Assembly: GCA_900753975.1 (NCBI GenBank)
Contig: CAAEBC010000055.1
Coordinates: 26,294 to 58,293 of the forward strand
DNA length: 32,000 nt
Origin: Clostridia bacterium
GTDB lineage: Bacteria; Bacillota; Clostridia; TANB77; UBA1234
Direction: 5' to 3'
Shown here in pieces: positions 10,485-27,152 of the stretch. Every line of letters starts with the position of its first letter. The first letter of the stretch is position 1. The notes below the pieces were generated by a model that was not told the origin of the DNA, searched no databases, and was given only the letters and a program-made list of their open reading frames with translations. Both the position numbers and the translations under genes were made by a program.

Positions 10485-10512
10485 TAGACACGAAAAAAAA
10501 CAATGCTATAAT
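10485..10512 (+). promoter_or_regulatory. possible promoter of the plus-strand T4SS-like operon
   Basis: TAGACA (10485-10490), 16-nt spacer, TATAAT (10507-10512). Confidence 0.4.
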
Positions 10513-10536
10513 CACATTCAAAAGGTGGTGATACAT

Positions 10537-10773
10537 TTGAAAGCAAAACATATTTACCTTTTGTTAATCACTATTTTTGTTATAATCTCGGTCGTACTTA
10601 AAATACTTACGTCATTCTCAAATCAAACTTCAGTTTTTTTATACTCTTTATTTTTCCATCTAATTGTTTCAGCATACATTTGCTATAGCTGGTTTGAACT
10701 ATTCGTATTGCAAGAAAAGCAAGGTAGCAAACTAATAAAAAGTAAACAAAAACTAAATTCTGACTGGAGATGA
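10537..10773 (+). CDS. small two-TM membrane protein, first gene of the T4SS-like operon
   Basis: The ORF track starts at GTG 10525. TTG 10537 sits about 6 nt after AAAGGTGGTGA. The stop overlaps the next gene's start (ATGA). No domain was recognised. Confidence 0.45.
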   Translation: MKAKHIYLLLITIFVIISVVLKILTSFSNQTSVFLYSLFFHLIVSAYICYSWFELFVLQEKQGSKLIKSKQKLNSDWR

Positions 10774-12443
10774 TTAATATTTTTAGCACTTCTACATTTT
10801 ACAACAAAAAATTCTTCATTTCAACATTTTTATTAATTATACTAATATTAAATTTATTTCTTTTTAAAGATGTTTACGAAGAACAATCTATATCTATATT
10901 ATTCCTAGAAAAAATCCATTCAATTCCTAAAGATATTTCCAAAATTTTTAAAATACTCTACTTTTTTTCTTTAATAATTTCATGGAGCTTTTTTCTAAAC
11001 ATAATATATCAAAAGTTTATAATTCCCACTATTCCTGAAAAAACTAAAACAAATATTCAAGAAAAAAATTCATTAATAATTGGCAAGAACTTATCAGACG
11101 GTAAAATTGTTTCGATACCCGAAAAAGGACTTTATCAAAACATATTGATTACTGGAACAATCGGTACAGGCAAGACCTCTTCAGCAATGTACCCTATCAC
11201 AAAACAATTATTAAATATGGGAATTGGTATGCTAGTTCTTGACGTTAAAGGAAACTTTCACGAAAAAGTAAAAGAGCTGTCGGCAAACACAAATAAAAAA
11301 CTAATAGTGATACAACTTGGTGGTAAATATACTTATAATCCTTTAGACAAACCAAATTTAAAGCCATCTATTTTAGCTAATCGCATAAAAACAATACTTA
11401 CTCTATTTTCAAATCAAAACACAACAGACTCATATTGGCTTGACAAAGTAGAATTATATTTAACAGAATGCATAAAACTCTGTAGACTCTACAACGATAA
11501 CTATGTAACATTCATCGAACTTCATAAATTAATTAACGATTCAAAATACTTAGAAGATAAAATTTCTATTGTTAAAAATTTGTTCCTTTCCAATAGCTTA
11601 AATCAATCTCAAGTATATGATTTCAAAACATCTTTAGAATTTTTTACATCTGAATTCAAATCTCTTGATTCAAGAGTACTTTCCATTATTCAATCAGAAG
11701 TTTCAAGGATAACCCAGTTATTTGTAAGTGATTACGAAGTCGCAAAAACTTTTTGTCCAGACAAAGCTAATATCTCGTTTTCAGGATTTGAAAACTTAGA
11801 AGATAATATTGTTGTGTTAAATATGAATATAGCAGAGTATCGAAATTTATCGAAAATAATTGCGACTTACTTAAAACTAGATTTTCAATCAGAAGTTCTT
11901 ATGCGATTAGCAAAAAAAAATACTATAAAACCAGTTGCTTTTGTGTGCGATGAATATCATGAATATGCCACCCAAAACGATGCTGACTTTTTTTCAGAAA
12001 GCAGAGAAGCAAAATGTATAAATATAGTTTCCACTCAAAGCTATACCTCGCTTCTAAATGCTGTCAGAGAAAACTCAGCAGCCAAAATCATCATTCAAAG
12101 CCTAGTAAATAAAATATGGTTTCGAACTGATGATATATTCACTATCGAAGAAGCACAAAAGCAACTAGGAAAGGAGGACAAAACTAAATATAGTCACACT
12201 ATATCAGAAAATGCAAAAGAGACAAAATTTAACTATATACTTAATAACTTCAAATCAAGTAATTCCAATATTTCTGAAAGCATAAGTTCTCAAATTCATC
12301 ACGACTTTATCTATGATATCAATACTTTTTCAAGAGAACTGCGAACATTTGAAGCAATATGTTTTTTGTCAAACGGATATGAAATCTTAAAGCCACAGAT
12401 CCTACAGCTTACACCTGAATTCAAAGCAAATAGATTTATATAA
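10770..12443 (+). CDS. type IV coupling protein (VirD4/TraG/TraD family ATPase)
   Basis: N-terminal TM helices, Walker A GTIGTGKTSS, VLDVKGNF, DSYWLDK, and Walker B-like VAFVCDEYHEY are present. The size and layout match the T4CP family. Confidence 0.8.
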   Translation: MINIFSTSTFYNKKFFISTFLLIILILNLFLFKDVYEEQSISILFLEKIHSIPKDISKIFKILYFFSLIISWSFFLNIIYQKFIIPTIPEKTKTNIQEKNSLIIGKNLSDGKIVSIPEKGLYQNILITGTIGTGKTSSAMYPITKQLLNMGIGMLVLDVKGNFHEKVKELSANTNKKLIVIQLGGKYTYNPLDKPNLKPSILANRIKTILTLFSNQNTTDSYWLDKVELYLTECIKLCRLYNDNYVTFIELHKLINDSKYLEDKISIVKNLFLSNSLNQSQVYDFKTSLEFFTSEFKSLDSRVLSIIQSEVSRITQLFVSDYEVAKTFCPDKANISFSGFENLEDNIVVLNMNIAEYRNLSKIIATYLKLDFQSEVLMRLAKKNTIKPVAFVCDEYHEYATQNDADFFSESREAKCINIVSTQSYTSLLNAVRENSAAKIIIQSLVNKIWFRTDDIFTIEEAQKQLGKEDKTKYSHTISENAKETKFNYILNNFKSSNSNISESISSQIHHDFIYDINTFSRELRTFEAICFLSNGYEILKPQILQLTPEFKANRFI

Positions 12444-12464
12444 AAATTGAAAGGAGCATAAAAG

Positions 12465-12791
12465 ATGCTAAAAAAGAATCTAAAAAAAGTAATCATATTT
12501 ACGTTACTTATAACAATACTAATTTCCTCAACTTGCCTAGCTGCTACACCAAAACTAATAAATAACTTAGAAAAGAATTTAAATACCATCAAAGAATGGA
12601 TTATAAAAATATCTACACCAGCTGCTGCAGTGGCCATTGGTGTTGGGATTCTAATGAAAAAATTCAGTTTTGGAGATGAAGAGCGAATCGTTTCTGGCAA
12701 GAAACTAATTCGTAGCACATTATTTTCTTACGCATTCATACTAAGTGTAGATTTAGTTTTAAAAGCCATCGAAAGCTTATTCGGCAAATAA
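12465..12791 (+). CDS. VirB2/TrbC-like pilin candidate (call based on topology only)
   Basis: 108 aa. A signal peptide ends in CLA-AT. Two hydrophobic helices are separated by a charged loop (KKFSFGDEERIVSGKK). A strong GAAAGGAG Shine-Dalgarno is present. Confidence 0.45.
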   Translation: MLKKNLKKVIIFTLLITILISSTCLAATPKLINNLEKNLNTIKEWIIKISTPAAAVAIGVGILMKKFSFGDEERIVSGKKLIRSTLFSYAFILSVDLVLKAIESLFGK

Positions 12792-12809
12792 TGAAAGGAG
12801 TAACTAAAT

Positions 12810-13703
12810 ATGTCTGGCGATACTATACAAGAAATAGATTTAGTTGAAGTGATTTTAGAAACAACAAATTCACTATACTCTTCCATAATAAGCTCAATAG
12901 TTCAAAACATTAATCCTTTATTAGATAAACTTATTTTTGTCGATAACACAATAACTACAGATTCATATTTTGAAAAAATATTTGGCACTTCTCCAACTAA
13001 CGGAGTTTTAATGCTAACCAATTGCCTACTTTTAGCCTTTATTTTATATTATTGCATAAAACTTATTGTTGCTCCATTTACAGGAAACGAAGTAGAATCA
13101 CCAAGCAGATTTATTTTAAGAATAATAATAGCAGCAATAACAATGAATTTTTCTCTCGAAATATGTAATCTCTTAATAAATGGTACTAATCAAATAAGTG
13201 ATTTCTTTTTAAGTTTAGGTAGCAGTATTTTCAAAAAAGAAATTTCTTTCGAAACTTTAATTTCGTGCTTAAATATCAATAGTCTAGATAACTTCAATGC
13301 TTTTTCTTTAGATGGAATTTTAAGCAGTATCTTATCTATTTCTTCTTTTTCCCTATTACTTAGCTTTTCTTTACGTTACATACTTATCAAATTACTAATT
13401 CTAGCTTCGCCATTTGCATTTTTATGCTTATCTACTAAAGCAACTGAGGGCTTTCTAAAAAGTTGGTACAAAAGTTTTCTTTCTATGCTATTACTTCAAA
13501 TAGTTCTATCTGCTCTTTTAATAATTCCTTATGCACTCTTAAAAGAAGACTCTTCTTCTCTATTTAATAAAATACTCCTAATCGGCTCTATTTCGGCCCT
13601 TTTAAAATCTGGGCAATTAGTTAAAGAGTTTTTAGGAGGAATCGGAATAACGTCTAGTTTTAGTTCTGGTGTATCGGGTATTAAATCAATTTTTATGAGG
13701 TAA
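12810..13703 (+). CDS. VirB6/TrbL-like polytopic membrane protein
   Basis: 297 aa with at least five hydrophobic segments. LASPFAFLCLSTKATEGFLKSWYKSF resembles the conserved block of Gram-positive VirB6 analogues. It sits between the VirB2-like and VirB3-like genes. Confidence 0.6.
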   Translation: MSGDTIQEIDLVEVILETTNSLYSSIISSIVQNINPLLDKLIFVDNTITTDSYFEKIFGTSPTNGVLMLTNCLLLAFILYYCIKLIVAPFTGNEVESPSRFILRIIIAAITMNFSLEICNLLINGTNQISDFFLSLGSSIFKKEISFETLISCLNINSLDNFNAFSLDGILSSILSISSFSLLLSFSLRYILIKLLILASPFAFLCLSTKATEGFLKSWYKSFLSMLLLQIVLSALLIIPYALLKEDSSSLFNKILLIGSISALLKSGQLVKEFLGGIGITSSFSSGVSGIKSIFMR

Positions 13704-13705
13704 CT

Positions 13706-14098
13706 ATGAAACAAAAATTTATTTTTCCACTAAATTACGACTACTCTGCCAAATTTCTAGGCATAATTGAATATAAATTATTGACACCTCTATTAATCTA
13801 TGGAATCCTACTATTTCTCGCATTACGATACTTTGATTTAACTTTTTTCACAGCTCTAAGTATTTTCATATTCTTATTTTTTCCTATCGCTTTACTGCTA
13901 AATTCTAGATTTTACACAGAACCTTTTTATACATTTTTCATTTGCATATTATCGCATTACGCAAAAAGTAAAATCTACTTATACAAACGGGTAATTTGGT
14001 GTGGAATTAATTCAACCTGCTTTTTATACTACACTTCTAATGATTTTATATTCGTGGTCCAGAATACATATGTATCTCAATTTGTGCTTTCCCCTTAA
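13706..14098 (+). CDS. VirB3-like small membrane protein (TcpE/PrgI-type)
   Basis: 130 aa. The N-terminal FPLNYDYSAKFLGIIEYKLLTP is followed by two TM helices. The start lies 2 nt after the upstream stop. In Gram-positive T4SS loci this position normally precedes virB4. Confidence 0.5.
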   Translation: MKQKFIFPLNYDYSAKFLGIIEYKLLTPLLIYGILLFLALRYFDLTFFTALSIFIFLFFPIALLLNSRFYTEPFYTFFICILSHYAKSKIYLYKRVIWCGINSTCFLYYTSNDFIFVVQNTYVSQFVLSP

Positions 14099-14154
14099 AG
14101 CTTCATCTCTCTAAAATAAAAAGCAGAATTCCATACCAAATTGCCCGTTTGTCT

Positions 14155-14184
14155 TTGACAAGAAATAATATTTTTAGATATAAT
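14155..14184 (+). promoter_or_regulatory. sigma-A type promoter of the DnaD-domain gene
   Basis: TTGACA (14155-14160), 18-nt spacer, TATAAT (14179-14184). Confidence 0.6.
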
Positions 14185-14236
14185 ATTGCCAAACCGAGAA
14201 AAAGTGTATATTATTATTTTGCTAGGGGGCAATATT

Positions 14237-15211
14237 ATGAATTTTGAACAAAACTTATCACTAATATTTGAAAATATGTCTATACCAGAAGTCTTTATTT
14301 CAGAATACCTTTGCACTGCAAATGGTGATTATGTAAAGATTTATTTGTATTGCTCTTTTTTATGTAAACATAATGTCGACATTTCCGCCCTAGACCTTTC
14401 ACAGAAGCTTGGTATATCTATTCAAAAAGTTGAGCAAGGTTTAAAATATTGGGAAGATAATGGTGTTATGATACGTAAAGGTGAATCTTATGTTTTAGCA
14501 GATTTAAAGCAAATCGAAGTAAACAAACTATATACACCCAAACTATCCTTATCAACAGAAGATGCAATCAAAAATACAGAAAGAAATGTATATCGTTCAC
14601 AAGCAATCAGTGCAATAAATGATATGTTTTTCCAAGGACTTATGTCTGAGACTTGGTTTGCAGATATTAATCTTTTGTTTACAAAATACATGTTTGATGA
14701 AAATGTGGTCTTGTCACTATTTAATTACTGCTATGCTCGAAAGGCATTACACAGAAAATATCTATTTGCTGTTGCAGATGCTTGGGCAAAGAACAACGTA
14801 AAAACTCAAGAAGACTTAGACAGATATTCTTTATCTTACGAAAAAGCAATTCAAGTTAAACGAACAATTGCTAAAAAACTTGGGCTTACACGAAATCTTT
14901 CTGAATACGAAGAAGCTTACGTTGAAAAATGGGTTCTTGAGTTTGGCTATTCATTAGATATAATAGAAATAGCTCTTAGACGCACAACATCAAAAACAAA
15001 TCCAAGTTTTAATTACTTAGATAAAATTATTACAGATTGGCACGAAAGAAACTTAAATACTGAATCAGAAGTAAACACATTTATAAAAGAACAAAAAGAA
15101 AAAAATAAAGCCATTAAAAACATTACTACTGGTAATCAAACGGTATTGCAAGCATACAAAGACACTGCAACAGCTCAATACGATGACTTATCTAAGTTTT
15201 ATATGAACTAA
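14237..15211 (+). CDS. DnaD/DnaB_2-domain replication initiation protein (B. subtilis DnaB/DnaD-like)
   Basis: Two DnaB_2-type repeats are present: YLFAVADAWAKNNVKTQEDL and FNYLDKIITDWHERNLNTESEV. The start is set at ATG 14237, 8 nt after AGGGGG, because the ORF-track start at 14186 lies directly after the -10 box. Confidence 0.8.
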   Translation: MNFEQNLSLIFENMSIPEVFISEYLCTANGDYVKIYLYCSFLCKHNVDISALDLSQKLGISIQKVEQGLKYWEDNGVMIRKGESYVLADLKQIEVNKLYTPKLSLSTEDAIKNTERNVYRSQAISAINDMFFQGLMSETWFADINLLFTKYMFDENVVLSLFNYCYARKALHRKYLFAVADAWAKNNVKTQEDLDRYSLSYEKAIQVKRTIAKKLGLTRNLSEYEEAYVEKWVLEFGYSLDIIEIALRRTTSKTNPSFNYLDKIITDWHERNLNTESEVNTFIKEQKEKNKAIKNITTGNQTVLQAYKDTATAQYDDLSKFYMN

Positions 15212-15268
15212 ATTATTAAAGAAAGGAGTGCATGATATAAACATCATGCAAACATATATTTATAAATT

Positions 15269-16262
15269 ATGTATAAAGACACATATAAACGCATAGAACG
15301 TGAGTATGAGATTAAACGTAACCTTGCAGATAAAAATTATCGTGAACTAAAAGAAAATACATATACTTCAAACCCAAGACTAAAAGAAATCGATATAGAA
15401 ATTTCAAAATTGCGGAATACGTGCTGCAAAGCTTTCGCTTAATCAAGATGACTCGCAAAAAAAATTTACATCTGATGAATTAAAAAAAGAGATCAGCTCT
15501 TTAAAATCAGAAAAAGAAAGAATACTATCAAGTTTAAATGTATCTCTTAAGCCTGTATATACATGTGACAAATGCAACGATACTGGATTTATCTATGAAA
15601 ACGGCATAGCTAGCATGTGCTCTTGCTTTAGGCAAGAACTAATAAACGAATCATACAGTAAATCAAACTTATATAAATTAAAAGATGAATGTTTTGAAAA
15701 AGTAAACCTTAATCTATTTTCTGCAGAACCTTCTCTAGCAAAATATAATACAGAAATATCACCTAGAGAAAATATGAAGAAAATAATAGATATATCAAAA
15801 ACTTTTATAAACAACTTTGAATCTCCTGACCAGAAAAACTTGTTATTTACAGGCACTCCAGGGGTAGGCAAAACATTTATGTCTAGTTGTATTGCAAACG
15901 AAATAATAAATAAAAATTATACCGTTTTATATCAAACTTCTTCTCTATTGCTAAACAGTATTTTTGAATACAAATTTAGTAAAGAAGAAAATTCAAAAGA
16001 ATTATATGACAACTTATTTAATGTAAATCTTTTAATAATTGATGACCTTGGTACCGAAAACTTAACAGCAGCAAAGTTTGAGGAACTTTTCACAATATTA
16101 AATTCAAGACTAATCACACCAGGAACAAAAACAATTATTTCAACAAACTTATCCCTTGAAGATCTTGCTAGAACTTATGATCACAGAATACTTTCGAGGC
16201 TCATGGGTAATTTCATAGTTTTAAGGTTTTATGGCGATGACATAAGACTTATAAAACACTAA
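15269..16262 (+). pseudogene. DnaC/DnaI-like helicase loader, reading frame interrupted (+1 shift near 15413)
   Basis: Frame A (15269-15442) gives MYKDTYKRIEREYEIKRNLADKNYRELKENTYTSNPRLKEIDIEISKL, then a stop. The next frame continues GIRAAKLSLNQDD...YTCDKCNDTGFIYENGIASMCSCF (a zinc-ribbon-like segment), then the AAA+ part with Walker A GTPGVGKT and Walker B LLIIDDLG. Removing the C at 15413 would restore a single ORF. Confidence 0.65.
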
Positions 16263-16305
16263 ATTATTTTTCATATATCTTTCTGATACTAAATCTTTTA
16301 AAGAT

Positions 16306-16336
16306 AAAAAATCCAGCTCTTTAGAGCTGGATTTTT
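16306..16336. terminator. bidirectional rho-independent terminator between the helicase-loader gene and gyrA
   Basis: Stem ATCCAGCTC / GAGCTGGAT with loop TTTA, flanked by A5 and T4. Confidence 0.75.
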
Positions 16337-16442
16337 ATTAACTATCCTTTATTGGGGATAGTTAGCAGTGTTATTGAAATGTTATTGAATGAATGTTTAT
16401 ATCACATTTAATAAAACAACATATTGTAGAAGACTAAATTTA

Positions 16443-18872
16443 TTATAAAATGTCCTCTGAAATTATCTTAGCGATACCAACAACTTTTCCACCATCGTTA
16501 GTTCTCATCAAAGTAACACCTTGAGTTGATCTACCTAGTACACTAATATTCATAACTTCTAATCTAATAATTACTCCCTTATCTGTAATTAGCATCACAT
16601 CGTCATTATCGTCAACAACTTGGATGCCTACAACCTTACCTGTTTTTGGAGTTGTCTTATAAGTAATTACACCTTTACCTGCTCTAATTTGTACTCTGTA
16701 CTCCTCAAGCTCAGTTCTCTTACCAAAACCATTTTCAGTTATAGCTAACAAGTATGCCTTTTCATTATAAATAGGTTCCATACCTACTACAAAATCGCCT
16801 TCAGAAACTCTAATACCAATTACACCTTGAGATACTCTTCCTACAGGTTTTACATCACTTTCAGCAAAAGTAATTGACATACCTTCATGAGTTACCATTA
16901 CGACATTTCTCTCGCCATCAGTTAATCTTACATCAATTAATTCATCGCCATCTTTCAAAGAGATTGCTTGTAGTCCAGTCTTTCTAGCACTATTGTACTC
17001 TAACAATTTTGTCTTCTTGATAATACCACCACGTGTAGCCATAAGTAAATATTGACCCTCTACAAACTCTTTTATAGGAATAACAGCAGTAACCTTTTCA
17101 TCTCCATCTAATTGTAGTAAGTTTACAATAGCTGTGCCTTTAGCGGTTCTGCCAGCTTCTGGCACTTCATATCCTTTTAATCTATATACTTTACCTTTAT
17201 TAGTAAAGAACATCAAAGTATCATGAGTAGAAGTAACAAATAATTGTTTTACGAAGTCTTCCTCTCTAGTTTGAATTCCTGTTATACCTTTTCCACCTCT
17301 TCTTTGAGCTTTATATGTATCAACAGGCATTCTCTTAATATATCCAAAACGTGTCATTGCAACAACAACACTTTCTTCTTTTATCAAGTCTTCGTTTGTC
17401 ATTTCTCCTTCTGCAGCTATTATTTGAGTTCTTCTTTCATCTCCATATTTAGCTTTCATTTCAAGCAATTCATCTCTTATAATATCACAAACCAATTTTT
17501 CACTAGCTAAAATTGCTCTATATCTTTCAATTTGTTCCATAAGTTGCTTATACTCTTCTTCAATTTTTTCTCTTTGTAATCCAGATAAAGTTCTAAGTTT
17601 CATTTCCAAAATGGCATTTGCTTGGATTTCAGTTAACTTAAATCTCTTCATAAGTCTTTCAGCAGCATCATCATAAGCAGCTCTAATGATAGCTATAACT
17701 TCATCAATATAATCAAGTGCAATTCTTAATCCTTCTAAAATATGAGCTCTTGCTAAAGCTTTGTCCAAATCAAATTTTGTTCTTCTAACAATAACTTCTT
17801 TTCTGTGCTCAATATAGCATTCAAGCATTTGCCTTAAAGTCAAGATCTTTGGCTCGCCTTTTACAAGTGCAAGCATGATAGCTCCAAAAGTATCTTGTAA
17901 TTGAGTATTTTTCAAAAGCTGATTTAAAACAATCTTAGGATTTGCATCCTTCTTAAGTTCAATAACAATTCTCATACCCTCTCTGTCCGATTCATCTCTC
18001 AAATCAGATATTCCGTCTAAACGTTTGTCACGAACCAAATCAGCAATATTTTCAATAAGTCTTGCTTTATTTACTTGATAAGGAAGTTCAGTAACAACAA
18101 TTCTATATCTACCATTACCATGCTCTTCAATTTCTGTCTTAGCTCTTACAATAATCTTGCCTCTACCCGTTGTATAACAGCTTCGTATACCTTCTTTACC
18201 AACAATAATTCCTCCAGTAGGAAAATCAGGTCCCTTAATTTCAGTCATCAAATCCTCATCAGTAACATTATCTTCTTCAACTAATCTAATAATCGCATTA
18301 ATAACTTCTGTTAAATTATGTGATGGTATGTTAGTAGCCATACCTACAGCAATACCAGAAGAACCATTAACTAATAAATTTGGGATCTTAGCAGGTAAAA
18401 CAGTTGGCTCTTGCAACTTTTCATCATAGTTAGGCATAAAATCAACTGTATTCTTTTCAATATCATCAAGCATTTCCACAGCAATCTTTGGCATTTTAGC
18501 TTCTGTGTACCTCATAGCAGCTGCACTATCGCCGTCGACACTACCAAAGTTACCATTACCATTTACCATCATGTATCTTAAAGAAAAGTTTTGCGCCATT
18601 CTTACCAAAGCATCATAAATAGACGCATCACCATGAGGATGGTATTTACCCATAACCTCTCCGACAATATAAGCAGATTTTCTGAAAGGCTTCTCTGGTG
18701 TAAGACCAAGACCATTCATAGAATACAAAATTCTTCTGTGAACTGGTTTTAAACCATCTCTAACATCAGGAAGTGCTCTTGAAACAATTACGCTCATAGC
18801 ATAATCTATATAAGACTTTTTCATTTCTTTTTCGATGTCTACTCGAATAATTTTTTTTGCATTTTCTTCCAT
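16443..18872 (-). CDS. gyrA: DNA gyrase subunit A
   Basis: 809 aa. The N-terminus carries DGLKPVHRRILY and the active-site region AAMRYTE. The GyrA-box QRRGGKG in the C-terminal domain distinguishes it from ParC. An AGGAG Shine-Dalgarno is present. Confidence 0.96.
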   Translation of the reverse strand: MEENAKKIIRVDIEKEMKKSYIDYAMSVIVSRALPDVRDGLKPVHRRILYSMNGLGLTPEKPFRKSAYIVGEVMGKYHPHGDASIYDALVRMAQNFSLRYMMVNGNGNFGSVDGDSAAAMRYTEAKMPKIAVEMLDDIEKNTVDFMPNYDEKLQEPTVLPAKIPNLLVNGSSGIAVGMATNIPSHNLTEVINAIIRLVEEDNVTDEDLMTEIKGPDFPTGGIIVGKEGIRSCYTTGRGKIIVRAKTEIEEHGNGRYRIVVTELPYQVNKARLIENIADLVRDKRLDGISDLRDESDREGMRIVIELKKDANPKIVLNQLLKNTQLQDTFGAIMLALVKGEPKILTLRQMLECYIEHRKEVIVRRTKFDLDKALARAHILEGLRIALDYIDEVIAIIRAAYDDAAERLMKRFKLTEIQANAILEMKLRTLSGLQREKIEEEYKQLMEQIERYRAILASEKLVCDIIRDELLEMKAKYGDERRTQIIAAEGEMTNEDLIKEESVVVAMTRFGYIKRMPVDTYKAQRRGGKGITGIQTREEDFVKQLFVTSTHDTLMFFTNKGKVYRLKGYEVPEAGRTAKGTAIVNLLQLDGDEKVTAVIPIKEFVEGQYLLMATRGGIIKKTKLLEYNSARKTGLQAISLKDGDELIDVRLTDGERNVVMVTHEGMSITFAESDVKPVGRVSQGVIGIRVSEGDFVVGMEPIYNEKAYLLAITENGFGKRTELEEYRVQIRAGKGVITYKTTPKTGKVVGIQVVDDNDDVMLITDKGVIIRLEVMNISVLGRSTQGVTLMRTNDGGKVVGIAKIISEDIL

Positions 18873-19126
18873 TTTTATATCTCCTATTCCTCTACTTACA
18901 AAACACCTTTTTTATGTTATTTAATGTCACAAAATTTATCTAAATAAAATAAAAAATAATTAAAATTATGACATTATAAATTTATATATATAAATCTTGA
19001 AATAATATAAAAAAAGCCATTTCGTACACTAAAATTATACTAAACTGCCTCACAAAAAGCAAGGAAAAATACCACAAAAACAACAAAAACCTATATTTCT
19101 AGTGTTTCTCTTTTGAAATCAGCCAG

Positions 19127-19155
19127 TTGACTTTTTATGTAAAGCATAGTATAAT
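19127..19155 (+). promoter_or_regulatory. consensus-like promoter of the 65-aa ORF
   Basis: TTGACT (19127-19132), 17-nt spacer, TATAAT (19150-19155). Confidence 0.6.
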
Positions 19156-19188
19156 AATTATGTAATCTTTTGAAAGGAAGTTATAATT

Positions 19189-19386
19189 ATGGAACCAAAA
19201 ATTGTTGAAAATAATAAAGAAAAGTCACTTGTAAAAAAAGGGGAAACCTCTTTGAAAAATACAGACAAAAACACATATATTATAAAGCCAATACTACAAA
19301 CAACAGTAGGGGTGATCTTCTATATAGCCTCATTTGTAGTGTCAGTAGCAATTGGCTATACATTCATATTCTCAGTTTTTAACTAA
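19189..19386 (+). CDS. small membrane protein (charged N-terminus, C-terminal TM helix)
   Basis: 65 aa with its own strong promoter and an AAAGGAAG Shine-Dalgarno 8 nt upstream. Its stop overlaps the stop of the convergent 229-aa gene by 4 nt. Confidence 0.5.
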   Translation: MEPKIVENNKEKSLVKKGETSLKNTDKNTYIIKPILQTTVGVIFYIASFVVSVAIGYTFIFSVFN

Positions 19387-20072
19387 GCAAGCTTTGCACA
19401 AAGTTCGCGCTCTATAGAACTAAGTTCTGTAGAGCCTTTGTTTTTCATAAGCTCATATCTATTGATAATCTCCTTACCCCTATCAATAGTACTAGAAATA
19501 AGCGATATTTTGTCCAAATCTTTTGAAATAGCATTAACATACTTTTTCATATCCTTTTCGTTATTGTTAGAAAAAGCCTTTTCAAACTCATCGCATTTCT
19601 TATTAATTCGTGAAAGCGTATTCTTATTTTTAGTCATAACCTTTTGCAATTCATCATCAAAAGTATCACCAAGTATTAAATCAATTCCCTCACGTACAAT
19701 ACTTTTAACTCCTGTCGGAATTCCTTTTATACTATCAACCCCAATATTAAGTGCACTTTTTAATCCAGACTTTAAATTACTATCTCTTATGGCTTTACCC
19801 AAATTTCTAAAATTATCAAAAGTTCTAGCTTTCATCCCTATCGTATTTTTAAGTACAGCTTTAAGTGCTGTGTTAATAGTGTCAGATATTAAACTCTTCG
19901 TCTTTTCATTACTAAAACCGTCCTTAATTTTAGTAATCATATTATCTTTCAAGTCCATCTTCATTAAACCAGTATTAATCGCATTATCTAAACTTTCATT
20001 TACAGTAGTACTAGCATTTCTAAGTTCTGTACTAACCTCCAATTTATTATCCCTATTTAAACTTAACTCCAT
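19383..20072 (-). CDS. hypothetical soluble helical protein, last gene of the VirB4-Tad-like operon
   Basis: 229 aa, with no TM segment and no recognisable motif. The 212-aa plus-strand ORF (19438-20076) is its low-complexity shadow. Confidence 0.6.
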   Translation of the reverse strand: MELSLNRDNKLEVSTELRNASTTVNESLDNAINTGLMKMDLKDNMITKIKDGFSNEKTKSLISDTINTALKAVLKNTIGMKARTFDNFRNLGKAIRDSNLKSGLKSALNIGVDSIKGIPTGVKSIVREGIDLILGDTFDDELQKVMTKNKNTLSRINKKCDEFEKAFSNNNEKDMKKYVNAISKDLDKISLISSTIDRGKEIINRYELMKNKGSTELSSIERELCAKLA

Positions 20073-20118
20073 ATAATTTTCGCGTAACCAAAATTACGCA
20101 CTCCTTTCTTTATAAATT

Positions 20119-21057
20119 CTAATAATCAAGTTTTTTAACTCTTATTGAAATCCACACAAGTAACCACATTGAAATAAAATTCCAATACAAAATCAAATTT
20201 CCAATCACAGATTTAGTCATTATCTTATAGTTTTCAACATTTGATTTTATAAATGACACATACACTATAATGTCTAATAAAATCAATATAAACAAAACAA
20301 TTCGTGCACTCTTCGTTTCTTCAATTCTCTTCTTTTTTTCCTCTTGTATTTCACTAATCATGATATAACTTTTATCAATCAACTCTGAAAAGTTACCACC
20401 ATACAAAAAGCAATGTTCAACATTAGTAAGAAAAGATTTCATTTGTTTTACACTTACCTTTTCTTTAAAATCTTGAATTGCATTTTCTAATCTTGTACCA
20501 CTCGAAACTTGAACAAGAAACTTTTTCACATATTCTTGAAGAGGCTCTATAGTCTTAACTTCACTCATAGCAGAAATAATATCATTATTTATACGAGTAT
20601 GATTTTTTAACTGCAAAAGAAAGTTTAAAAAAACTTTTTCTATTTTTTCTTCTTTATACTCTGCAATCATGCTAAGTATTAAAAAAGGTAAATAGAAAAA
20701 CGGAATAGATATAATAAGTGACAACATTATAATCTTAAAAAATCCAAAAGATACTGTATATGCAAAACATACACATAATACTCCAGCAAATATTACAGAG
20801 ATAGGGTTTATAAGCATATTCCTTTGCATTCCACATCGATCAATTAATATATTTACTTTTTTAAAATAATTAATTTTATTTTTAAACTTCACCTTTTTAT
20901 TTTTGTCATAATATTTTAGCAAATCACTATAATACTTTTCATTTTTCTTTTTAAAAAATTCTTTTGCATTGTCTTTTAACTTACTAATTGAAATCTTTTG
21001 AACAATACTATACATGCAAACACCTATAAGCAAAAACAACAAACAATTTAATATCAT
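20119..21057 (-). CDS. TadB/TadC-like platform protein (type II secretion system F family)
   Basis: 312 aa. An N-terminal TM helix is followed by two TMs, a helical cytoplasmic domain and C-terminal TMs. The start overlaps the stop of the CpaF-like gene (ATGA). The family call rests on topology and position. Confidence 0.6.
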   Translation of the reverse strand: MILNCLLFLLIGVCMYSIVQKISISKLKDNAKEFFKKKNEKYYSDLLKYYDKNKKVKFKNKINYFKKVNILIDRCGMQRNMLINPISVIFAGVLCVCFAYTVSFGFFKIIMLSLIISIPFFYLPFLILSMIAEYKEEKIEKVFLNFLLQLKNHTRINNDIISAMSEVKTIEPLQEYVKKFLVQVSSGTRLENAIQDFKEKVSVKQMKSFLTNVEHCFLYGGNFSELIDKSYIMISEIQEEKKKRIEETKSARIVLFILILLDIIVYVSFIKSNVENYKIMTKSVIGNLILYWNFISMWLLVWISIRVKKLDY

Positions 21058-22340
21058 AATAAAACCCTTTCTATCTCTGTAGTAGATAACTCTACCTTTT
21101 CTTTTACTTTATTTATTGCATCATTTACTTTTTCAAAATGTCCTATTGATTTTCCATTTTCATATCTATCTACTTTAAATTCAAACAAAATGTTATATCT
21201 CACATCTTGAATTTCTTCATCATATATAACTTCGGCTATTTCATGTATCTTAAAATTTTTCATAAATATGACAACATCCACAGACATAGCTAAAAGCTTT
21301 CTCAAATATTTATCTGTATAACTTTGTGCACTAATATCACGTTTCATAAGAGTAACCAACCTATCAAGAGTATTTTTACTACTATCTGAGTGAACAGTAG
21401 CATAACCTCTGTGTCCCGTAGAAACTGCATCGAAAAACACCATTGCTTCTTCACCTTTTAATTCACCTATAACAACAACATCATTAGACATTACAAGCGA
21501 ATGTGCGGTAAGCTTGGCAAGTGTAATGTTTTTGTCTTTATTTCTGTTATTTAAAATCTCTCTTTGAATAACATTCGGATGACTTAAGTTAAGTTCAGCT
21601 GTTTCTTCATTAGAAGTTATAGATAAGTCTTCTGGAATTCTATTTATTAAATTACGCATTAAAGTCGTTTTACCACTTCCACCTTTACCGCTAATAATAA
21701 TATTGCATCCGGAAATAATTGATTTAACAAGAAATTTATAAATATCTAAGTCAAACATTTCAATATCAGTCATAAAAAGTTCTTCAAGCGTTTGATTAAG
21801 ATTTGGTCTATGTATACGAATTACTAAATTAGGCGAAGAAACATTCACAGGCTCGATTCCAGCTTCTATACGCAAATTATTTTTTCTATCACTAACAACA
21901 ACTATCGGTTCTTCATTTGTAATCTTTCCATGATTTTTCAAAATACAATAACGCACAAAATTTGTATAATCCTCTTTCGAATTAAAGGACTCTTTTATTC
22001 TCTCCCAATTTCCTTTTCTCTTTACAAATACTCTATCAAAGCTAGTTACTCTAATATCAGAAACATCAGCATCATCAATATATTTTTGCAAAATATAATA
22101 GCCAAAAATTCTATCCAAAATATTTTTAATAGTAGATTCTGTATTCATATTTGCATACTCTTTATACACCTTCTCGCGTATAATATTTTCAACAATATTT
22201 CTATTAATATCAATGTCACTTAAATAATCAGAATAGTTATTAATTAGGAAACTAATTATCTCACCAATAACCTTATCTTTATTCACTTCTAAATTAGGCT
22301 CTACATTATTTGCCTCACTTTTTAAAGGATTAATTAACAC
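21054..22340 (-). CDS. CpaF/TadA/VirB11-superfamily secretion ATPase (T2SSE family)
   Basis: Walker A GKGGSGKTT, Asp box NEETAEL, Walker B VVVIGELKGEEA, His box GHRGYATVHSDS. Confidence 0.85.
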   Translation of the reverse strand: MLINPLKSEANNVEPNLEVNKDKVIGEIISFLINNYSDYLSDIDINRNIVENIIREKVYKEYANMNTESTIKNILDRIFGYYILQKYIDDADVSDIRVTSFDRVFVKRKGNWERIKESFNSKEDYTNFVRYCILKNHGKITNEEPIVVVSDRKNNLRIEAGIEPVNVSSPNLVIRIHRPNLNQTLEELFMTDIEMFDLDIYKFLVKSIISGCNIIISGKGGSGKTTLMRNLINRIPEDLSITSNEETAELNLSHPNVIQREILNNRNKDKNITLAKLTAHSLVMSNDVVVIGELKGEEAMVFFDAVSTGHRGYATVHSDSSKNTLDRLVTLMKRDISAQSYTDKYLRKLLAMSVDVVIFMKNFKIHEIAEVIYDEEIQDVRYNILFEFKVDRYENGKSIGHFEKVNDAINKVKEKVELSTTEIERVLL

Positions 22341-23664
22341 TTGTAATCACTTCTCTTTCTAACTTATTATCAGTCGCAAAAAAATTCTTTTTAATATCAA
22401 GCAATTTTTCAATAATATTTTTCTTAGGCACGTAATTTATATTCATCAAAATATTCCCATAAGAATTAGCATTTGACTCTTCATTAAACTTTATTTCACC
22501 AACAATTTTCATTCCATCCATAGCCTCTACTATAACTTCATCTTCAATGCTTGTTTTAGATTTTTTATTAACAATAATCTCAATCTTTTGTTTCCAAACT
22601 CCCCAAGTTTTAGTAATAATGTTGATAAACTGATTCATCTTTTTTAGTGAAAGAAAATTACTTTCTGTAATGAACAAAATCCTTGTTGCCATGCTTAAAG
22701 CCCATTTTGTAGAATCTAAAAACATATTGCTACTCGTATCAATAATAATAAAATCATATTTTTCCTTTGCACATCTTAATAGCTCGTTATAGCAATCGCT
22801 ATTAAGCACATTTTGACAGTAATGTAATGATGTATTACCAGTTAAAACATCAAATCCTCCAACATTTACAACAAGTTCATCAAAGACATTTGAATTAAAT
22901 CTATTCTTCATAATTAATTCCGAAACGTAATTTATTCCAGATTTTTTATCTGCATCTAAACAAATTTCAATGTTTTTTGGCACTTTATCAATTTGCAAAA
23001 TTTCATCAATGTTACCATTTAAAGTATCCAAATCTATAAGTAAAATTTTAGAAGCACTTTTTTCAGATAAGACCTTGCAAAAATTTACAGCAAAAGTTGA
23101 TTTGCCAGCACCAGGTATTCCGCTTATTGCAATAACTTCTTGCTTTTGTACCATTTTTTCTAAAACTACTGGAACATCTTTTTCAGCTTTTTCTTTTTTT
23201 TCAAAATCACTAACCTTTTTGGGGTTGCTTTTTTGAAGTTCTATAACATTATCAGTAACATTATATTTTTCTATATCTTCGCTTATCATTTCATATTTCT
23301 TTATAATAGGATCTTCTCTATCAATCGCATCAACAATATCTTGCACTTCAACACTACTATCTAAAAAAATATCCAAGACATTACTCTTTTCCAAAACTTT
23401 TCTTAAAGCATTATCAATCTCATCAATAACAATAATAATTCTAGCAGAAGAATTTTCTTTTCTTATTTTCGAAACAAACTCCTCTAAATCCCATTGACCT
23501 TGCAAAAGTCCACTAATTATAATAGTATCTACCTCACATTTACTAAGACACGTTACAAGCATATCTTGACAAAACAAATCATTAGAAACCAAATCATACT
23601 TAGAATACTTTTTTAATTCATTATTTAAAATATCATTACCCATAGCAGTAACTATTTTTTTCAT
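22330..23664 (-). CDS. TadZ/CpaE-like protein (receiver-like N-domain plus ParA/MinD-type ATPase)
   Basis: The N-terminal ~120 aa have a flavodoxin/receiver-like pattern. The central part carries the P-loop VIAISGIPGAGKST and LLIDLD. It overlaps the CpaF-like gene by 11 nt. An AAGGGGGAG Shine-Dalgarno is present. Confidence 0.7.
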   Translation of the reverse strand: MKKIVTAMGNDILNNELKKYSKYDLVSNDLFCQDMLVTCLSKCEVDTIIISGLLQGQWDLEEFVSKIRKENSSARIIIVIDEIDNALRKVLEKSNVLDIFLDSSVEVQDIVDAIDREDPIIKKYEMISEDIEKYNVTDNVIELQKSNPKKVSDFEKKEKAEKDVPVVLEKMVQKQEVIAISGIPGAGKSTFAVNFCKVLSEKSASKILLIDLDTLNGNIDEILQIDKVPKNIEICLDADKKSGINYVSELIMKNRFNSNVFDELVVNVGGFDVLTGNTSLHYCQNVLNSDCYNELLRCAKEKYDFIIIDTSSNMFLDSTKWALSMATRILFITESNFLSLKKMNQFINIITKTWGVWKQKIEIIVNKKSKTSIEDEVIVEAMDGMKIVGEIKFNEESNANSYGNILMNINYVPKKNIIEKLLDIKKNFFATDNKLEREVITSVN

Positions 23665-23686
23665 AAAAACTCCCCCTTAAAACTCA

Positions 23687-25504
23687 TTACAAATCTTCTC
23701 TATCAGTACTAATAAATTTATGTTCATATTCCGATGCTTTAACCTTGACAAGAATATGATTTTTGCCAGCATACATAAGACACGATCCACGTTCGGCATT
23801 TAATAATTTATAGCTTTCCATTTCAGATAAATTCAAAACTTCCTTAAGCTTTAAAATATCAGTCTCCTCAACTTGAAAAACACATTTGATAGCCGAATTA
23901 TTTAAAATACCTTTTCCATACACTCCATCTTCAAGTGCAAAAAAATCATTCACATCTTGTGTGATAGCAGTCGCTGCTCCACCATATTTTCTTATAGTTT
24001 TAAAAATCTTAAAAACAAACATAGCAGTCATACTATTATGATTAATAAGCTTCCAAACTTCATCTAAATAAATAATCTTTTTTCTTCCTCTATTTAAGCA
24101 AATGTTATCCCAATAAAAATCAGTAATAACAAAAAGAAGCATCGGCAGATTTTTCTCGTCAACATTATAAATATCCGAAACTATAAGTTTATTATTCAAA
24201 TTCACATTAGTATAATTATTCATAAACTTAAGCGAACCAGAAATATATGGCTTTAATAAAACAGCAAACTTTTTCATCTTTTTATCTTTTGAAATCAAAT
24301 TATATAAATCACCTAAAATCGGCATCGTTTCTGGTCCTTTAAACTTTTTATTATTTAAAAACTTGGAATCTTCACTTTTTACATATAAAGATTCATTATC
24401 AAAAGTAATTCCCTTTTCTGCATAACATTTAATAATCTTTTCTTCCAATAAATTTTTCTCTTCATCAACTAAATCCGGAAAAATAATACTGAAAAAAGTC
24501 ATTAACTTTTGAAGTTTATTTTGTAAAAAATTCTCATCACCATCAAGAGAAATTTCTCTAATATCAAAAATATTTATAACATCGCCTTTTCCAAAATTTA
24601 TAAATGCACCATCTAAAGCCTTGCAAAGCTCTACGTACTCACGATCAGGATCGATAACAAACTGAGTAATATTTAAAAGCCTATTTCTTGCAATCATAAG
24701 TTTTATAAAATAAGACTTTCCAGAACCACTAGCTCCAAACACACACATATTAGCATTTTTATACTTAGCAGTATCAAATCTATCAACCATAACAATTGAA
24801 TTATTAAAAGCATTTACCCCCATCAAAACGCCTTTTTCATCACAAAAGTCATTTGATATAAATGGGTATGTACTAACTAATCCACTCGTCAAAACATTTC
24901 TTTTACTTACGTTCTTCACATCTTTAGGATTATATAAAATAGGCAAACATGCCTTAAATAAACTCTCTTCTCTAAAAAATCCTCTTCGTGTACTTAAACC
25001 ACACCCTAATGCAATAGATTCAATCCTTTGCAAATTTTCTTCCAACAATTTCAAATCTTTTGCAAAAGTCAAAATATAAATATTTAAATAATACAAATCA
25101 TCATTATCAACCTGCATTTTTTTCTTTATATATTTAGCATTTTCATAACTCTCATTCATCACATCAATATCTATCTGATTTCTTGAAGACGTTTTAATAT
25201 TTGCACCTGTGGCACTAATATAACTAGTAAGCTCTTTTAATGTTTCATAAGAATTCTTTTTTTCATAAAACATAGAAATCTCAAAATCAATATCAGAAGA
25301 AATAAGCCCATCTAAAAAGCCACCGTCCATCTCAGAACTATAGTTATTTACAAAAATAGAAGCTACCAAATACTCGTTAACTGTCAAATATTTAGGATTA
25401 CGTGTATCAATAAAAGTTGGACATAAATTATTTAAAGATTTTTTAGTGTTAATAAAAGCCATAGCAAATTTCCTTTCTAAACATTTTCTCTTCGAAAAAA
25501 GCAC
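23687..25504 (-). CDS. VirB4-family T4SS ATPase, C-terminal two-thirds
   Basis: Walker A GASGSGKSYF, Walker B KIIYLDEVWKL, and ATAITQDVNDF are present. The ORF-track start is GTG 25504. An alternative ATG at 25462 (MAFINTK) follows GAAAGGAAA. Confidence 0.8.
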   Translation of the reverse strand: MLFSKRKCLERKFAMAFINTKKSLNNLCPTFIDTRNPKYLTVNEYLVASIFVNNYSSEMDGGFLDGLISSDIDFEISMFYEKKNSYETLKELTSYISATGANIKTSSRNQIDIDVMNESYENAKYIKKKMQVDNDDLYYLNIYILTFAKDLKLLEENLQRIESIALGCGLSTRRGFFREESLFKACLPILYNPKDVKNVSKRNVLTSGLVSTYPFISNDFCDEKGVLMGVNAFNNSIVMVDRFDTAKYKNANMCVFGASGSGKSYFIKLMIARNRLLNITQFVIDPDREYVELCKALDGAFINFGKGDVINIFDIREISLDGDENFLQNKLQKLMTFFSIIFPDLVDEEKNLLEEKIIKCYAEKGITFDNESLYVKSEDSKFLNNKKFKGPETMPILGDLYNLISKDKKMKKFAVLLKPYISGSLKFMNNYTNVNLNNKLIVSDIYNVDEKNLPMLLFVITDFYWDNICLNRGRKKIIYLDEVWKLINHNSMTAMFVFKIFKTIRKYGGAATAITQDVNDFFALEDGVYGKGILNNSAIKCVFQVEETDILKLKEVLNLSEMESYKLLNAERGSCLMYAGKNHILVKVKASEYEHKFISTDREDL

Positions 25505-26001
25505 TCAAAAATCTTACAAATGACATCTTCTTTGCATGCAGTCACTTCATTACCACAAGCTTCTAATGTGCTTACAATTTTATTAATGCTTTCTTCATAA
25601 TCTTTTTTCTTTTTAAAAATAATAAAAAATCTTCTCGTAAAACTTCGCTTGTCACCAACAATTTGTGTAATTAATTCCTTATAACATTTAGTCATCTGAG
25701 AGAATTTTGAATCTTCTGTATAATACTTATCTACTTCTTCCAAATGCTTACTGACATCGGTCTTATATGCTAAAACTATTATCTGAATATCAAAATCACA
25801 TTGCTTTAAAAATCTTCTATACGTATCTAAAATAGCCATCTGTTCAAGTTCAGATTTTAATTTAAAATTTACAGGTTTCACTTCAAGAACTGATATAACA
25901 TCATTATTTGCAAGATATATAAATTCATCAAAATTCTTTATAGGTAGCCATTCTAAAACATCATGCAGTTTATCTTTTTTTATAAAAATCCCACCTTTCA
26001 T
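25477..26001 (-). CDS. VirB4 N-terminal domain encoded as a separate ORF
   Basis: 174 aa. ISVLEVKPVNFKLKSELEQMAILDTYRRFLKQCDFDIQIIV...FTRRFFIIF resembles the N-terminal domain of Gram-positive VirB4 proteins. Its 3' end overlaps the ATPase ORF by 28 nt. No clear Shine-Dalgarno precedes ATG 26001. Confidence 0.6.
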   Translation of the reverse strand: MKGGIFIKKDKLHDVLEWLPIKNFDEFIYLANNDVISVLEVKPVNFKLKSELEQMAILDTYRRFLKQCDFDIQIIVLAYKTDVSKHLEEVDKYYTEDSKFSQMTKCYKELITQIVGDKRSFTRRFFIIFKKKKDYEESINKIVSTLEACGNEVTACKEDVICKIFECFFRRENV

Positions 26002-26580: not shown

Positions 26581-27116
26581 CTTTTATTTCAATTAATTCC
26601 TTTATTTTTTCTCATTATACACTCGAAACTACAAGACAAAAAATTATCCACGTCCCTAAAAGAACGTGGATATCATATAGAAAAGCACAAATCTTAACTC
26701 CGACTAAATATGGATAATTACGCACCTCAGTATACCTTTCGGCGATACCAAAGCACTCCACCACCCACAAAAATCTTTGCTCGAATATTAAGAAAATCTA
26801 CACAACCATGCAAGGCTTTTTTAGCCAAACACAATCATTCTTATAAATGTTTTTTATTTAAGTTGTCCTTCTAGAACAACTTAAGTCAGAAACAAACTTT
26901 CAACTTCCAAAATACTCTTAACTCAAATGCATGGCATACTCATTGACCATATATTTATAAAACTTTATCATACAGCCAAAGTCATACATCATACACTCTT
27001 AACGCCGACTATACATCATAGTAATTACCACCATGTATAATCTTTGTACGAATCGCAAAAGACTACATCGATAATAATCTAGTGAAACTCTTAGCTCAAC
27101 TCGTACTTCTCTAACA
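26581..27116 (-). ncRNA. candidate ~540-nt non-coding transcript of unknown class
   Basis: The unit is ORF-free. It is bounded upstream by a promoter (27123-27152) with an AT-rich UP-like tract and downstream by the 26536-26579 palindrome. It shows strong C>G skew on the plus strand and contains internal ~60-nt homologous modules. Confidence 0.3.
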
Positions 27117-27122
27117 ATCATT

Positions 27123-27152
27123 ATTATAACCACGCAAAAAAAGTTTATTCAA
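27123..27152 (-). promoter_or_regulatory. promoter with an AT-rich upstream tract, pointing into the ORF-free region
   Basis: On the minus strand: TTGAAT (27152-27147), 18-nt spacer, TATAAT (27128-27123). An A/T-only tract lies upstream at 27153-27185. Confidence 0.5.

Follow-up and report, generated by a model that had tools for sequence, protein, structure and literature searches.

A chromosomal locus of gut Clostridia that joins type IV secretion genes to a Tad-derived motor module

Does a bacterial locus in which genes of a type IV secretion system (T4SS) adjoin genes of a Tad pilus encode one machine, two independent neighbours or the remains of a conjugative element? The question is raised by a stretch of 32,000 nucleotides from a Clostridia bacterium (NCBI GenBank assembly GCA_900753975.1, contig CAAEBC010000055.1, positions 26,294 to 58,293 of the forward strand), referred to here as the window, which carries two blocks of such genes on opposite strands. 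Arm A (26001-19383, minus strand) encodes a TrsD-like protein, a VirB4 ATPase, a trio of proteins resembling TadZ, CpaF and TadB, and a sixth protein called p229, while arm B (10525-14098, plus strand) encodes the small protein p82, a VirD4-type coupling protein, a VirB2-like pilin and two membrane proteins resembling VirB6 and VirB3 (Table 1). A preliminary description, made from the letters of the DNA, listed these open reading frames (ORFs), all of which are present where it placed them, and read the locus as a hybrid of T4SS and Tad parts. Our analysis, which covered 32 kb of the source genome and 10-kb flanks in relatives, strengthens that reading through the Tad ancestry of the trio and the conserved operonic link of VirB4 with it. 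We put at roughly 0.6 the probability that the locus encodes one functional composite machine serving the host cell, and would assign a much lower one to any particular substrate.

By sequence comparison, the TadZ-like, CpaF-like and TadB-like genes of arm A are true Tad derivatives. The TadZ-like protein, whose P-loop and Walker B motif are conserved, aligned over its full length with TadZ of canonical clostridial Tad loci (hhalign, 100%, E 8e-95), and the platform protein p312 aligned with canonical TadB (100%, E 2e-67), as the preliminary assignments would have it. The CpaF assignment held as well: in profile searches against the PDB the ATPase found CpaF as its best match (3e-29, residues 48-404) and VirB11 as a partial one (7e-22). 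We also considered, and rejected, a true VirB11. The family TIGR02788 of NCBIfam is top-scoring for this ATPase, but with 155 bits against a cut-off of 250 and over residues 199-373 only; the CpaF match is both longer and stronger, and a neighbour-joining tree places the hybrid ATPases inside the clostridial CpaF radiation, far from the ATPase of plasmid pXO2. A scan of GTDB representatives yielded a second set of loci, with ATPases 52-58% identical to that of the window, which belong to canonical Tad loci in related metagenome-assembled genomes (MAGs). One of these (L041) is a textbook Firmicute Tad operon that encodes TadZ, CpaF, TadB and TadC (the last two both with T2SSF domains), a 73-aa Flp-like protein and CpaB/RcpC. 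The second platform protein TadC was not found in the window, where a single T2SSF protein is encoded and the next gene, that of p229, specifies a soluble and unrelated protein. Similarly, neither the window nor the hybrid loci contain a Flp pilin, a prepilin peptidase (TadV/CpaA) or CpaB/RcpC, whereas this set is present in the canonical loci L041 and pCd5_2. Two canonical Tad ATPases that are 56-58% identical to the window's and cluster with clostridial ones come from MAGs labelled Ignavibacteriales and Deltaproteobacteria (L034, L035), which points to mis-binned contigs or to horizontal transfer of a clostridial Tad locus.

The genes of the trio are also linked to that of VirB4, and this in a wide range of relatives. 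We surveyed linkage by tblastn of all window proteins onto 49 loci and found the arm A block (TrsD, VirB4, TadZ, CpaF, TadB and the sixth gene) to be contiguous in about 35 species representatives, with gyrA directly downstream in most of them. Two distant Clostridia MAGs (L053 and L054; identity to the window 45-55% for the ATPase and 30% for VirB4) keep the six-gene cassette amid different housekeeping genes, gyrA not being among them. The preliminary description had proposed to check in relatives whether VirB4 and the Tad-like genes form one operon, and they do, both in about 35 species and in the two distant lineages; irrespective of the flanks, the trio starts 17-22 nt after VirB4 and its frames overlap. 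The overlapping or closely spaced stops and starts noted earlier were seen in the window, with a Shine-Dalgarno sequence at each gene and the start of p312 overlapping the ATPase stop by 4 nt, and the gene overlaps and ribosome-binding sites of arm A are conserved in relatives. Because the upstream genes vary (recR, an rsmI-like methylase gene, feoB or minC), the conserved unit is the cassette plus gyrA. Identities within it drop in parallel, ranging over 73-92% for gyrA, 54-82% for the ATPase, 44-69% for VirB4 and 31-66% for the TadZ-like protein. Arm B is likewise a kept block, bounded by DUF1858 and, at its opposite end, by dnaB (DnaD-like)-dnaI, and it is kept also far from arm A, since in L064, from the species of L010, it occupies a different neighbourhood; the arm B record P0155 lies on the same 499-kb contig as L010. 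With VirB4 encoded in arm A and VirD4, VirB6, the VirB3-like protein and the pilin in arm B, the arms would need each other.

That VirB4 occupies two ORFs, as the preliminary description noted, is correct, but this is not a broken gene. The identity of the larger protein as VirB4 was upheld by NCBIfam matches to the CD1110 family (2e-81) and the Mbov_0397 family (2e-73), both under the equivalog cut-offs, and by a P-loop_TraG match (5.9e-25); Walker A, Walker B and the ATAITQD motif are kept in orthologues. The TrsD-like protein aligns with the N-terminus of the single-ORF VirB4 of about 760 aa found in L024, L037 and L048, and in the remaining loci the break falls at one and the same inter-domain linker. 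A TrsD protein beside VirB4, remotely related to the VirB4 N-terminus, has been described for the pGO1 subclass of MPF_FATA systems and for Patescibacteria (PMC12102498). Given the break at a linker, the separate AAAGGA and ATG of the downstream ORF and this known TrsD plus VirB4 layout, we regard the split as an accepted architecture and not as decay. Single-ORF and split forms are mixed among the window's nearest relatives on both sides, so that fusion or fission must have occurred repeatedly.

Arm B supplies the remaining recognisable T4SS parts. The VirD4 call agrees with Pfam, and the motifs quoted for it (GTIGTGKTSS and VCDEYHEY) are both present and conserved; its Walker A, Walker B and STQS motifs are kept in orthologues and its dN/dS is about 0.1. 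The VirB2-like assignment gained support from the T4SS_pilin family (PF18895, 21-27 bits) and, more weakly, from TrbC: the window protein itself falls under the cut-off, and one orthologue (L064) passes it at 27.3 versus 26.6 bits. Identity between species is 55-76% for this pilin, and such conservation in a single-copy protein is more in keeping with a structural role than with diversification under pressure from a host or the immune system. For the VirB6-like protein, an AlphaFold2 (AF2) model (pLDDT 74) was searched with Foldseek, and the top seven PDB matches were all TrwI/VirB6 of R388 (probability 1.0, TM up to 0.56), in line with the earlier call. The last protein of arm B had been called VirB3/TcpE-like; its size, topology and position are compatible with this, as its place after VirB6 and its N-terminus (FPxNYxYxxKFLGIIEY) are conserved, but family support amounts to a weak PrgI match in one orthologue, and we infer from these features that it is VirB3/PrgI-like. 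Orthologues of p82 with 42-44% identity precede VirD4 in L064 and L066 and keep the C-terminal HEKQGSKL...SDWR. In L066 a small Amidase_6/CHAP cell-wall hydrolase gene (6901-7359, minus strand) adjoins DUF1858 at a distance of two genes from VirD4; its product might serve as the T4SS hydrolase of that species, and the window has no counterpart of it.

As judged from gene order and divergence, the system is chromosomal and vertically inherited throughout the clade. Catalytic motifs, including Walker A and B, are kept in all four ATPases (VirB4, VirD4, CpaF-like and TadZ-like), dN/dS against the nearest species is 0.07-0.31 for every gene of the locus, and synonymous sites have diverged as much as those of gyrA (pS 0.55-0.70 versus about 0.6). 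The locus had been thought more AT-rich than gyrA or dnaX, and its total GC content is indeed 2-6 points lower; the difference is limited, however, to codon positions 1 and 2, and GC at third positions (GC3) is the same as in housekeeping genes (0.19-0.28 versus 0.16-0.30). We therefore rejected the idea of recent horizontal acquisition that a low GC content might suggest. In agreement with the preliminary description, Pfam searches of the larger window ORFs turned up neither a relaxase nor an integrase, a VirB8, a hydrolase or a prepilin peptidase, and nothing was recognised as a Flp pilin; no family of VirB8-like proteins (PrgL/TcpC) or VirB1-like hydrolases was found in the window ORFs scanned. 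In the gene tables of six or more relative species no relaxase Pfam occurs within 10 kb, nor do the tables of relatives show an integrase or another mobile-element gene at that distance, and the window holds no integrase, mobile-element gene, repeats or compositional boundary. A search of plasmid DNA returned tRNA and topoisomerase fragments only, so that the window is not a known plasmid, p312 had no tblastn match on plasmids, and a scan of viral contigs found nothing similar. Two kinds of plasmid match were considered as counterparts and discarded: the ATPase matches on pCd5_2 and pB6464 are canonical Tad loci with no adjacent VirB4, and the best plasmid VirB4 (Vescimonas pMM35_02) belongs to a T4SS of another kind, in which PrgI is fused to VirB4 and Tad parts are lacking.

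The origin of the T4SS core was traced through VirB4. An exhaustive search of 1.84 billion representatives placed VirB4 relatives of at least 40% identity in about eight clusters, mostly of split forms of about 600 aa, below which there is a step to VirB4s of 800-1000 aa at 34-39% identity; the few named neighbours are annotated 'PrgI family protein [Clostridia bacterium]'. In this search the window's VirB4 falls in a small separate clade. Its neighbours, the Clostridia PrgI-VirB4 proteins and the Vescimonas fusion, indicate that the T4SS core descends from Firmicute conjugation machinery.

Among known systems, none that we found combines the same parts: an operon uniting VirB4 with TadZ, CpaF and TadB was not described in the literature searched. 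According to a review of 2025, T4SSs of Gram-positive bacteria 'universally lack VirB11 homologs', and VirB2 and VirB5 are absent outside Patescibacteria (PMC12857230). The preliminary description had also held that Gram-positive conjugative systems lack a VirB11-type ATPase. Both statements proved too strong, because pAW63 and pXO2 have been described with a VirB11-like ATPase (PMC1196294) and the pXO2 conjugation region encodes both a T2SSE ATPase and a TrbC/VirB2 protein (PF04956, 4.9e-14); the uniqueness of the locus was overstated with regard to the Patescibacteria T4SS, too. The pXO2/pAW63/pBT9727 systems share with the hybrid VirB4, VirD4, a T2SSE 'VirB11' ATPase followed by two membrane-size proteins, and the TrbC/VirB2 protein. 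They differ in being plasmid-borne and in having a relaxase (MOBP typing). The pXO2 ATPase lies outside the VirB4 operon and shares only 27% identity with that of the window over the core; no T2SSF signal was seen in its neighbours, and a TadZ-like gene is lacking.

The Patescibacteria T4SS is chromosomal, relaxase-less, essential and often located near replication genes (Wang et al. 2023, PMC10633639; Quinonero-Coronel et al. 2025, PMC12102498). It resembles the hybrid in its monoderm host, its chromosomal position without a relaxase, its set of TrsD-like, VirB4, PrgI/VirB3 (tentative in the hybrid), VirB6 and VirB2-like proteins, its origin from Firmicute-type (MPF_FATA) conjugation machinery and its frequent place beside replication genes. 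However, no TadZ, CpaF or T2SSF partner has been reported for it, its pilins form variable arrays where the hybrid has one highly conserved pilin, and its coupling protein is usually remote and non-essential whereas VirD4 heads arm B. The hybrid host, moreover, is a Clostridium-like spore former, and its nearest named VirB4s are Clostridia PrgI-VirB4 proteins. Tad/Flp systems (L041, pCd5_2 and pB6464) have homologous TadZ, CpaF and TadB in the same order and with overlapping frames, but the hybrid lacks their TadC, Flp pilin, prepilin peptidase, CpaB and minor pilins, and its trio is preceded by the TrsD-like protein and VirB4 and trailed by an unrelated helical protein. PAPI-1-type and IncI (R64) elements show that VirB4/VirD4 can operate alongside a type IV pilus, hence with a member of the type IV filament superfamily, and PAPI-1 has been suggested to use a chimeric translocation route; both are mobile, reside in diderm hosts and encode relaxases as well as complete type IVb pili, whereas the hybrid has cytoplasmic and inner-membrane Tad parts only, a VirB2-type pilin and a chromosomal, vertical mode of inheritance. 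Finally, the ComB importer of Helicobacter pylori and the archaeal Ced/Ted importers are relaxase-less, chromosomal, T4SS-derived and serve the host cell, as we propose for the hybrid, but are without VirD4, a VirB11- or CpaF-type ATPase and a T2SSF platform.

If the locus does encode a single machine, its parts suggest how it might work. The TadZ-like protein would position the complex in the membrane, and a hexamer of the CpaF-like ATPase on the TadB-like platform would be a third motor, playing the part that VirB11 has in Gram-negative systems. Together with TrsD/VirB4, the CpaF-like ATPase would help in extracting and polymerising the VirB2-like pilin and in moving the machine from one state to another, and VirD4 would feed substrate into a VirB6/VirB3 channel. 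Its most likely use would be to pass protein or DNA, in either direction, between the cell and neighbours in contact with it, a role that has been put forward for the Patescibacteria T4SS too. Pilus formation, the coupling of the Tad and T4SS modules and the substrate are features that we infer from the genes encoded. The machine most likely serves the cell and not a mobile element, given that no relaxase, integrase or boundary is found nearby and that the genes co-diverge with the chromosome, and the conservation of VirD4 suggests a translocator rather than a mere pilus. There is precedent for non-conjugative chromosomal T4SSs with pilins (PMC12102498, PMC10633639). A wider proposal, which we consider possible but doubtful, is that the locus represents an undescribed class of T4SS, a host-domesticated, pilus-forming machine of monoderm Firmicutes in which a VirB4/VirD4/VirB6/VirB2 apparatus has taken in the Tad module as its third motor and platform, both integral to it, and which is put to clade-wide non-conjugative use (for example, contact-dependent exchange of protein, nutrients or DNA between neighbours) as the Firmicute counterpart of the essential Patescibacteria T4SS.

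Several points weigh against the composite machine. A physical interaction between the Tad-derived proteins and VirB4 would be deduced from the conserved operon structure only, and the neighbour-joining tree does not separate one recruitment of the Tad module from several. Matches of the TadZ-like protein and p312 to solved structures are weak at the sequence level and uninformative, and the sole family match of the VirB3/PrgI-like protein is the weak one to PrgI, with an E-value of 0.01 in one orthologue. Without a VirB8-like protein or a hydrolase in the window, the channel may be incomplete or finished by genes elsewhere, and a relaxase, Flp pilin or prepilin peptidase could lie outside the visible regions.

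It is with these points in mind that other explanations have to be weighed. The preliminary description allowed for a decaying conjugative element, and a remnant of this kind would account for the failure to find a relaxase or integrase, for the neighbouring dnaI frameshift and for the division of VirB4, which would then be a sign of pseudogenisation. That division, however, lies at an inter-domain linker and follows a known layout with its own Shine-Dalgarno sequence and ATG, and the ORFs are intact in about 35 species with their motifs kept and dN/dS far under 1. Because synteny, motifs, dN/dS, GC3 and pS all contradict it, we regard decay as highly improbable and as excluded for practical purposes. 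A working conjugation system with its relaxase and oriT elsewhere, either a domesticated integrative element that acts in trans on chromosomal DNA or on other elements or a means of relaxase-independent chromosomal transfer, would explain why VirD4 has the TraG-D_C and DNA-binding all-alpha domains typical of DNA-transferring systems and why, beyond the clade, VirB4 is most closely related to conjugation proteins of Clostridia; in known systems the coupling-protein and relaxase genes can be distant from virB4. Yet the gene tables of six or more species show no relaxase within 10 kb, there is no integrase, repeat or compositional boundary, and the co-divergence of the arms with gyrA implies no horizontal movement within the clade, all of which makes conjugation distinctly unlikely in our view.

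The composite machine must also be set against two readings in which the genes work, but otherwise than proposed here. The locus might hold two independent neighbours, an ordinary monoderm T4SS and a trimmed Tad pilus whose pilin, prepilin peptidase and second platform are encoded elsewhere. Related MAGs do encode complete canonical Tad loci, so that Tad pili exist in the group, and Tad and conjugation genes adjoin on plasmids such as pCd5_2 of C. difficile without known coupling. The 17-22 nt spacing from VirB4 and the overlapping frames, held across the species and distant lineages surveyed, speak against a chance neighbourhood, as does the lack of any Tad pilin, peptidase, TadC or CpaB near the trio when the canonical loci of the group hold all of these in one operon; we therefore judge two separate machines to be unlikely. 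Alternatively, the locus may serve competence, taking up DNA through a T4SS-type pilus and channel in the manner of H. pylori ComB or the archaeal Ced/Ted systems, with the Tad-derived motor serving retraction. Relaxase-less importers derived from T4SSs do exist (ComB and Ced), transformation in Micrococcus is reported to be supported by Tad-type pili (PMC8467076) and CpaF is reported to be able to power both extension and retraction (PMC11300603), and comM and dprA follow just after gyrA in some relatives. But ComB and Ced work without VirD4, which here heads arm B and is strongly conserved, and comM-dprA is common Firmicute synteny, and is absent from the window; nor is any link to ComEA or ComEC visible. 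Uptake is accordingly quite unlikely in our assessment.

The locus has a conserved pilin and shows what would be a second route to a third motor, in which the ATPase, the platform and the organiser were borrowed from a Tad pilus. If the modules do act as one machine, it would be a natural experiment in combining the type IV secretion and type IV filament superfamilies and could help to explain the function of VirB11. Its chromosomal fixation in common, uncultured gut Clostridia suggests that the bacteria's own biology depends on cell-to-cell transfer; if so, the precedent set by Patescibacteria would reach into a mainstream gut phylum. The gene set is defined, and can be traced in metatranscriptomes and in cultivation attempts.

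Table 1. Features of the locus and its surroundings (window coordinates)
Feature	Coordinates	Strand	Remarks
Promoter-like site, arm B	10485..10512	+	TAGACA, 16 nt, TG-TATAAT; 11/12 matches, extended -10; intergenic, before p82
p82	10525..10773	+	Small two-helix membrane protein; stop overlaps VirD4 start (ATGA); no Pfam match
VirD4-type coupling protein (type IV coupling protein, T4CP)	10770..12443	+	TrwB_AAD_bind 2.7e-10, TraG-D_C 3.9e-6
VirB2-like pilin	12465..12791	+	108 aa; signal peptide and two hydrophobic helices; single copy
VirB6/TrbL-like polytopic membrane protein	12810..13703	+	297 aa; many homologues match TrbL or TrbL_3
VirB3/PrgI-like small membrane protein (predicted)	13706..14098	+	Conserved core of about 95 aa; two hydrophobic helices
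gyrA	16443-18872	-	True GyrA, QRRGGKG GyrA-box; no gyrB nearby
p65	19189..19386	+	Small membrane protein with C-terminal anchor; convergent with p229; uncertain member of the locus
p229	19383..20072	-	Sixth arm A gene; soluble, all-helical; no family
TadB-type platform protein (p312)	20119..21057	-	Single T2SSF domain, 28.7 bits versus cut-off of 25.2
CpaF/TadA-type ATPase (VirB11 superfamily)	21054..22340	-	T2SSE 1.7e-25; all four boxes conserved
TadZ-like organiser	22330..23664	-	444 aa; N-terminal receiver-like domain and ParA/MinD-type ATPase; AAA_31 6e-13, CbiA 1e-8
VirB4 ATPase	23687..25462	-	591 aa; ATG at 25462 after AAAGGA; GTG ORF reaches 25504
TrsD-like protein (separate VirB4 N-terminal domain)	25477..26001	-	174 aa; precomputed PF26593 TraC-like match
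Flanking genes, one side of locus			Signal recognition particle (SRP) RNA, dnaX, ybaB, recR
Flanking genes, other side of locus			tRNA-Lys/Glu/Thr cluster, ypeB, monogalactosyldiacylglycerol (MGDG) synthase, sigma factor

The sixth gene of arm A encodes a protein for which the preliminary description saw no recognisable domain, and we found neither a Pfam family nor, for its AF2 model (pLDDT 82, nine helices), a fold match in the PDB (best E 0.46). With 51 homologues in 5.8 billion sequences p229 is lineage-restricted, although a gene of 230-250 aa occupies its position even in L053 and L054. Its identification as a VirB8-like or TadC-like protein was rejected, given an all-helical soluble model that has no NTF2-like fold and no PDB match, and no similarity to a TadC profile. 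The convergent p65 was found in the nearest species only (L012, L015, L016 and L037; 51-63% identity). We located candidate transcription signals with a consensus scan, and they are pattern matches only. Besides the site upstream of arm B, there is a promoter-like sequence with 12/12 consensus matches before DnaB_2 (14155-14184), and terminator-like hairpins follow p65 (19409-19435), recR (26672-26645) and gyrA (16336-16307). These sites and hairpins, together with the 510 nt that separate gyrA from p229 and contain a small convergent gene, make the arms look like transcription units of their own that stand beside the replication genes and are not fused to them.

The window has a GC content of 30.0%, as expected of chromosomal DNA of a low-GC organism, and the presence of ypeB and of a DnaB_2/DnaI pair suggests that the host is a spore-forming Firmicute. 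Its proteins recur with unchanged gene order on hundreds of gut-metagenome contigs of up to 171 kb, and the related genomes found are all MAGs of uncultured Clostridia or Eubacteriales (from human, rabbit, deer, sheep and chicken gut). The usual downstream neighbour of arm A is gyrA and the kept ones of arm B are dnaB and dnaI, a setting that recalls the placement of the Patescibacteria T4SS near replication genes. The helicase-loader gene dnaI next to arm B (15269-16262, plus strand) carries a one-base frameshift near codon 50, giving ORFs of 57 aa and 215 aa where relatives have 327-332 aa; the frameshift is probably real, since the identical split occurs in six independent assemblies of the species. 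Further away, a McrB-like AAA_5 ATPase gene (5020-6285, plus strand) with a weak N-terminal EVE-domain match and no obvious adjacent McrC may be an orphan or degenerate restriction component. An ABC-2 permease fused to a CAAX/Rce1-like protease domain (728 aa; 918-3104, minus strand) is encoded by a gene overlapping that of an ABC ATPase (3088-3834, minus strand), an arrangement that recalls bacteriocin self-immunity transporters.

Between recR and the TrsD-like gene lies a structured RNA (26645-27152, minus strand) that matches no Rfam family. It consists of two related tandem domains, a core (26685-26842) and a weaker second copy (26991-27104), and is flanked by a promoter-like site and a terminator-like hairpin that would yield a transcript of about 470 nt. 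The RNA also occurs in L037 (339-751), L021, L022, L023 and L036. Covariation supports the structure, with 22 pairs changing on both sides versus 4-7 when the partners were slid, and 92% of cells paired versus about 40%. In six species it lies within 1 kb of arm A, in two of them co-oriented with it and in four divergent. A riboswitch-type leader of arm A was rejected as a general explanation, because in those four species the divergent RNA has no downstream gene; the RNA is probably an independent RNA gene.

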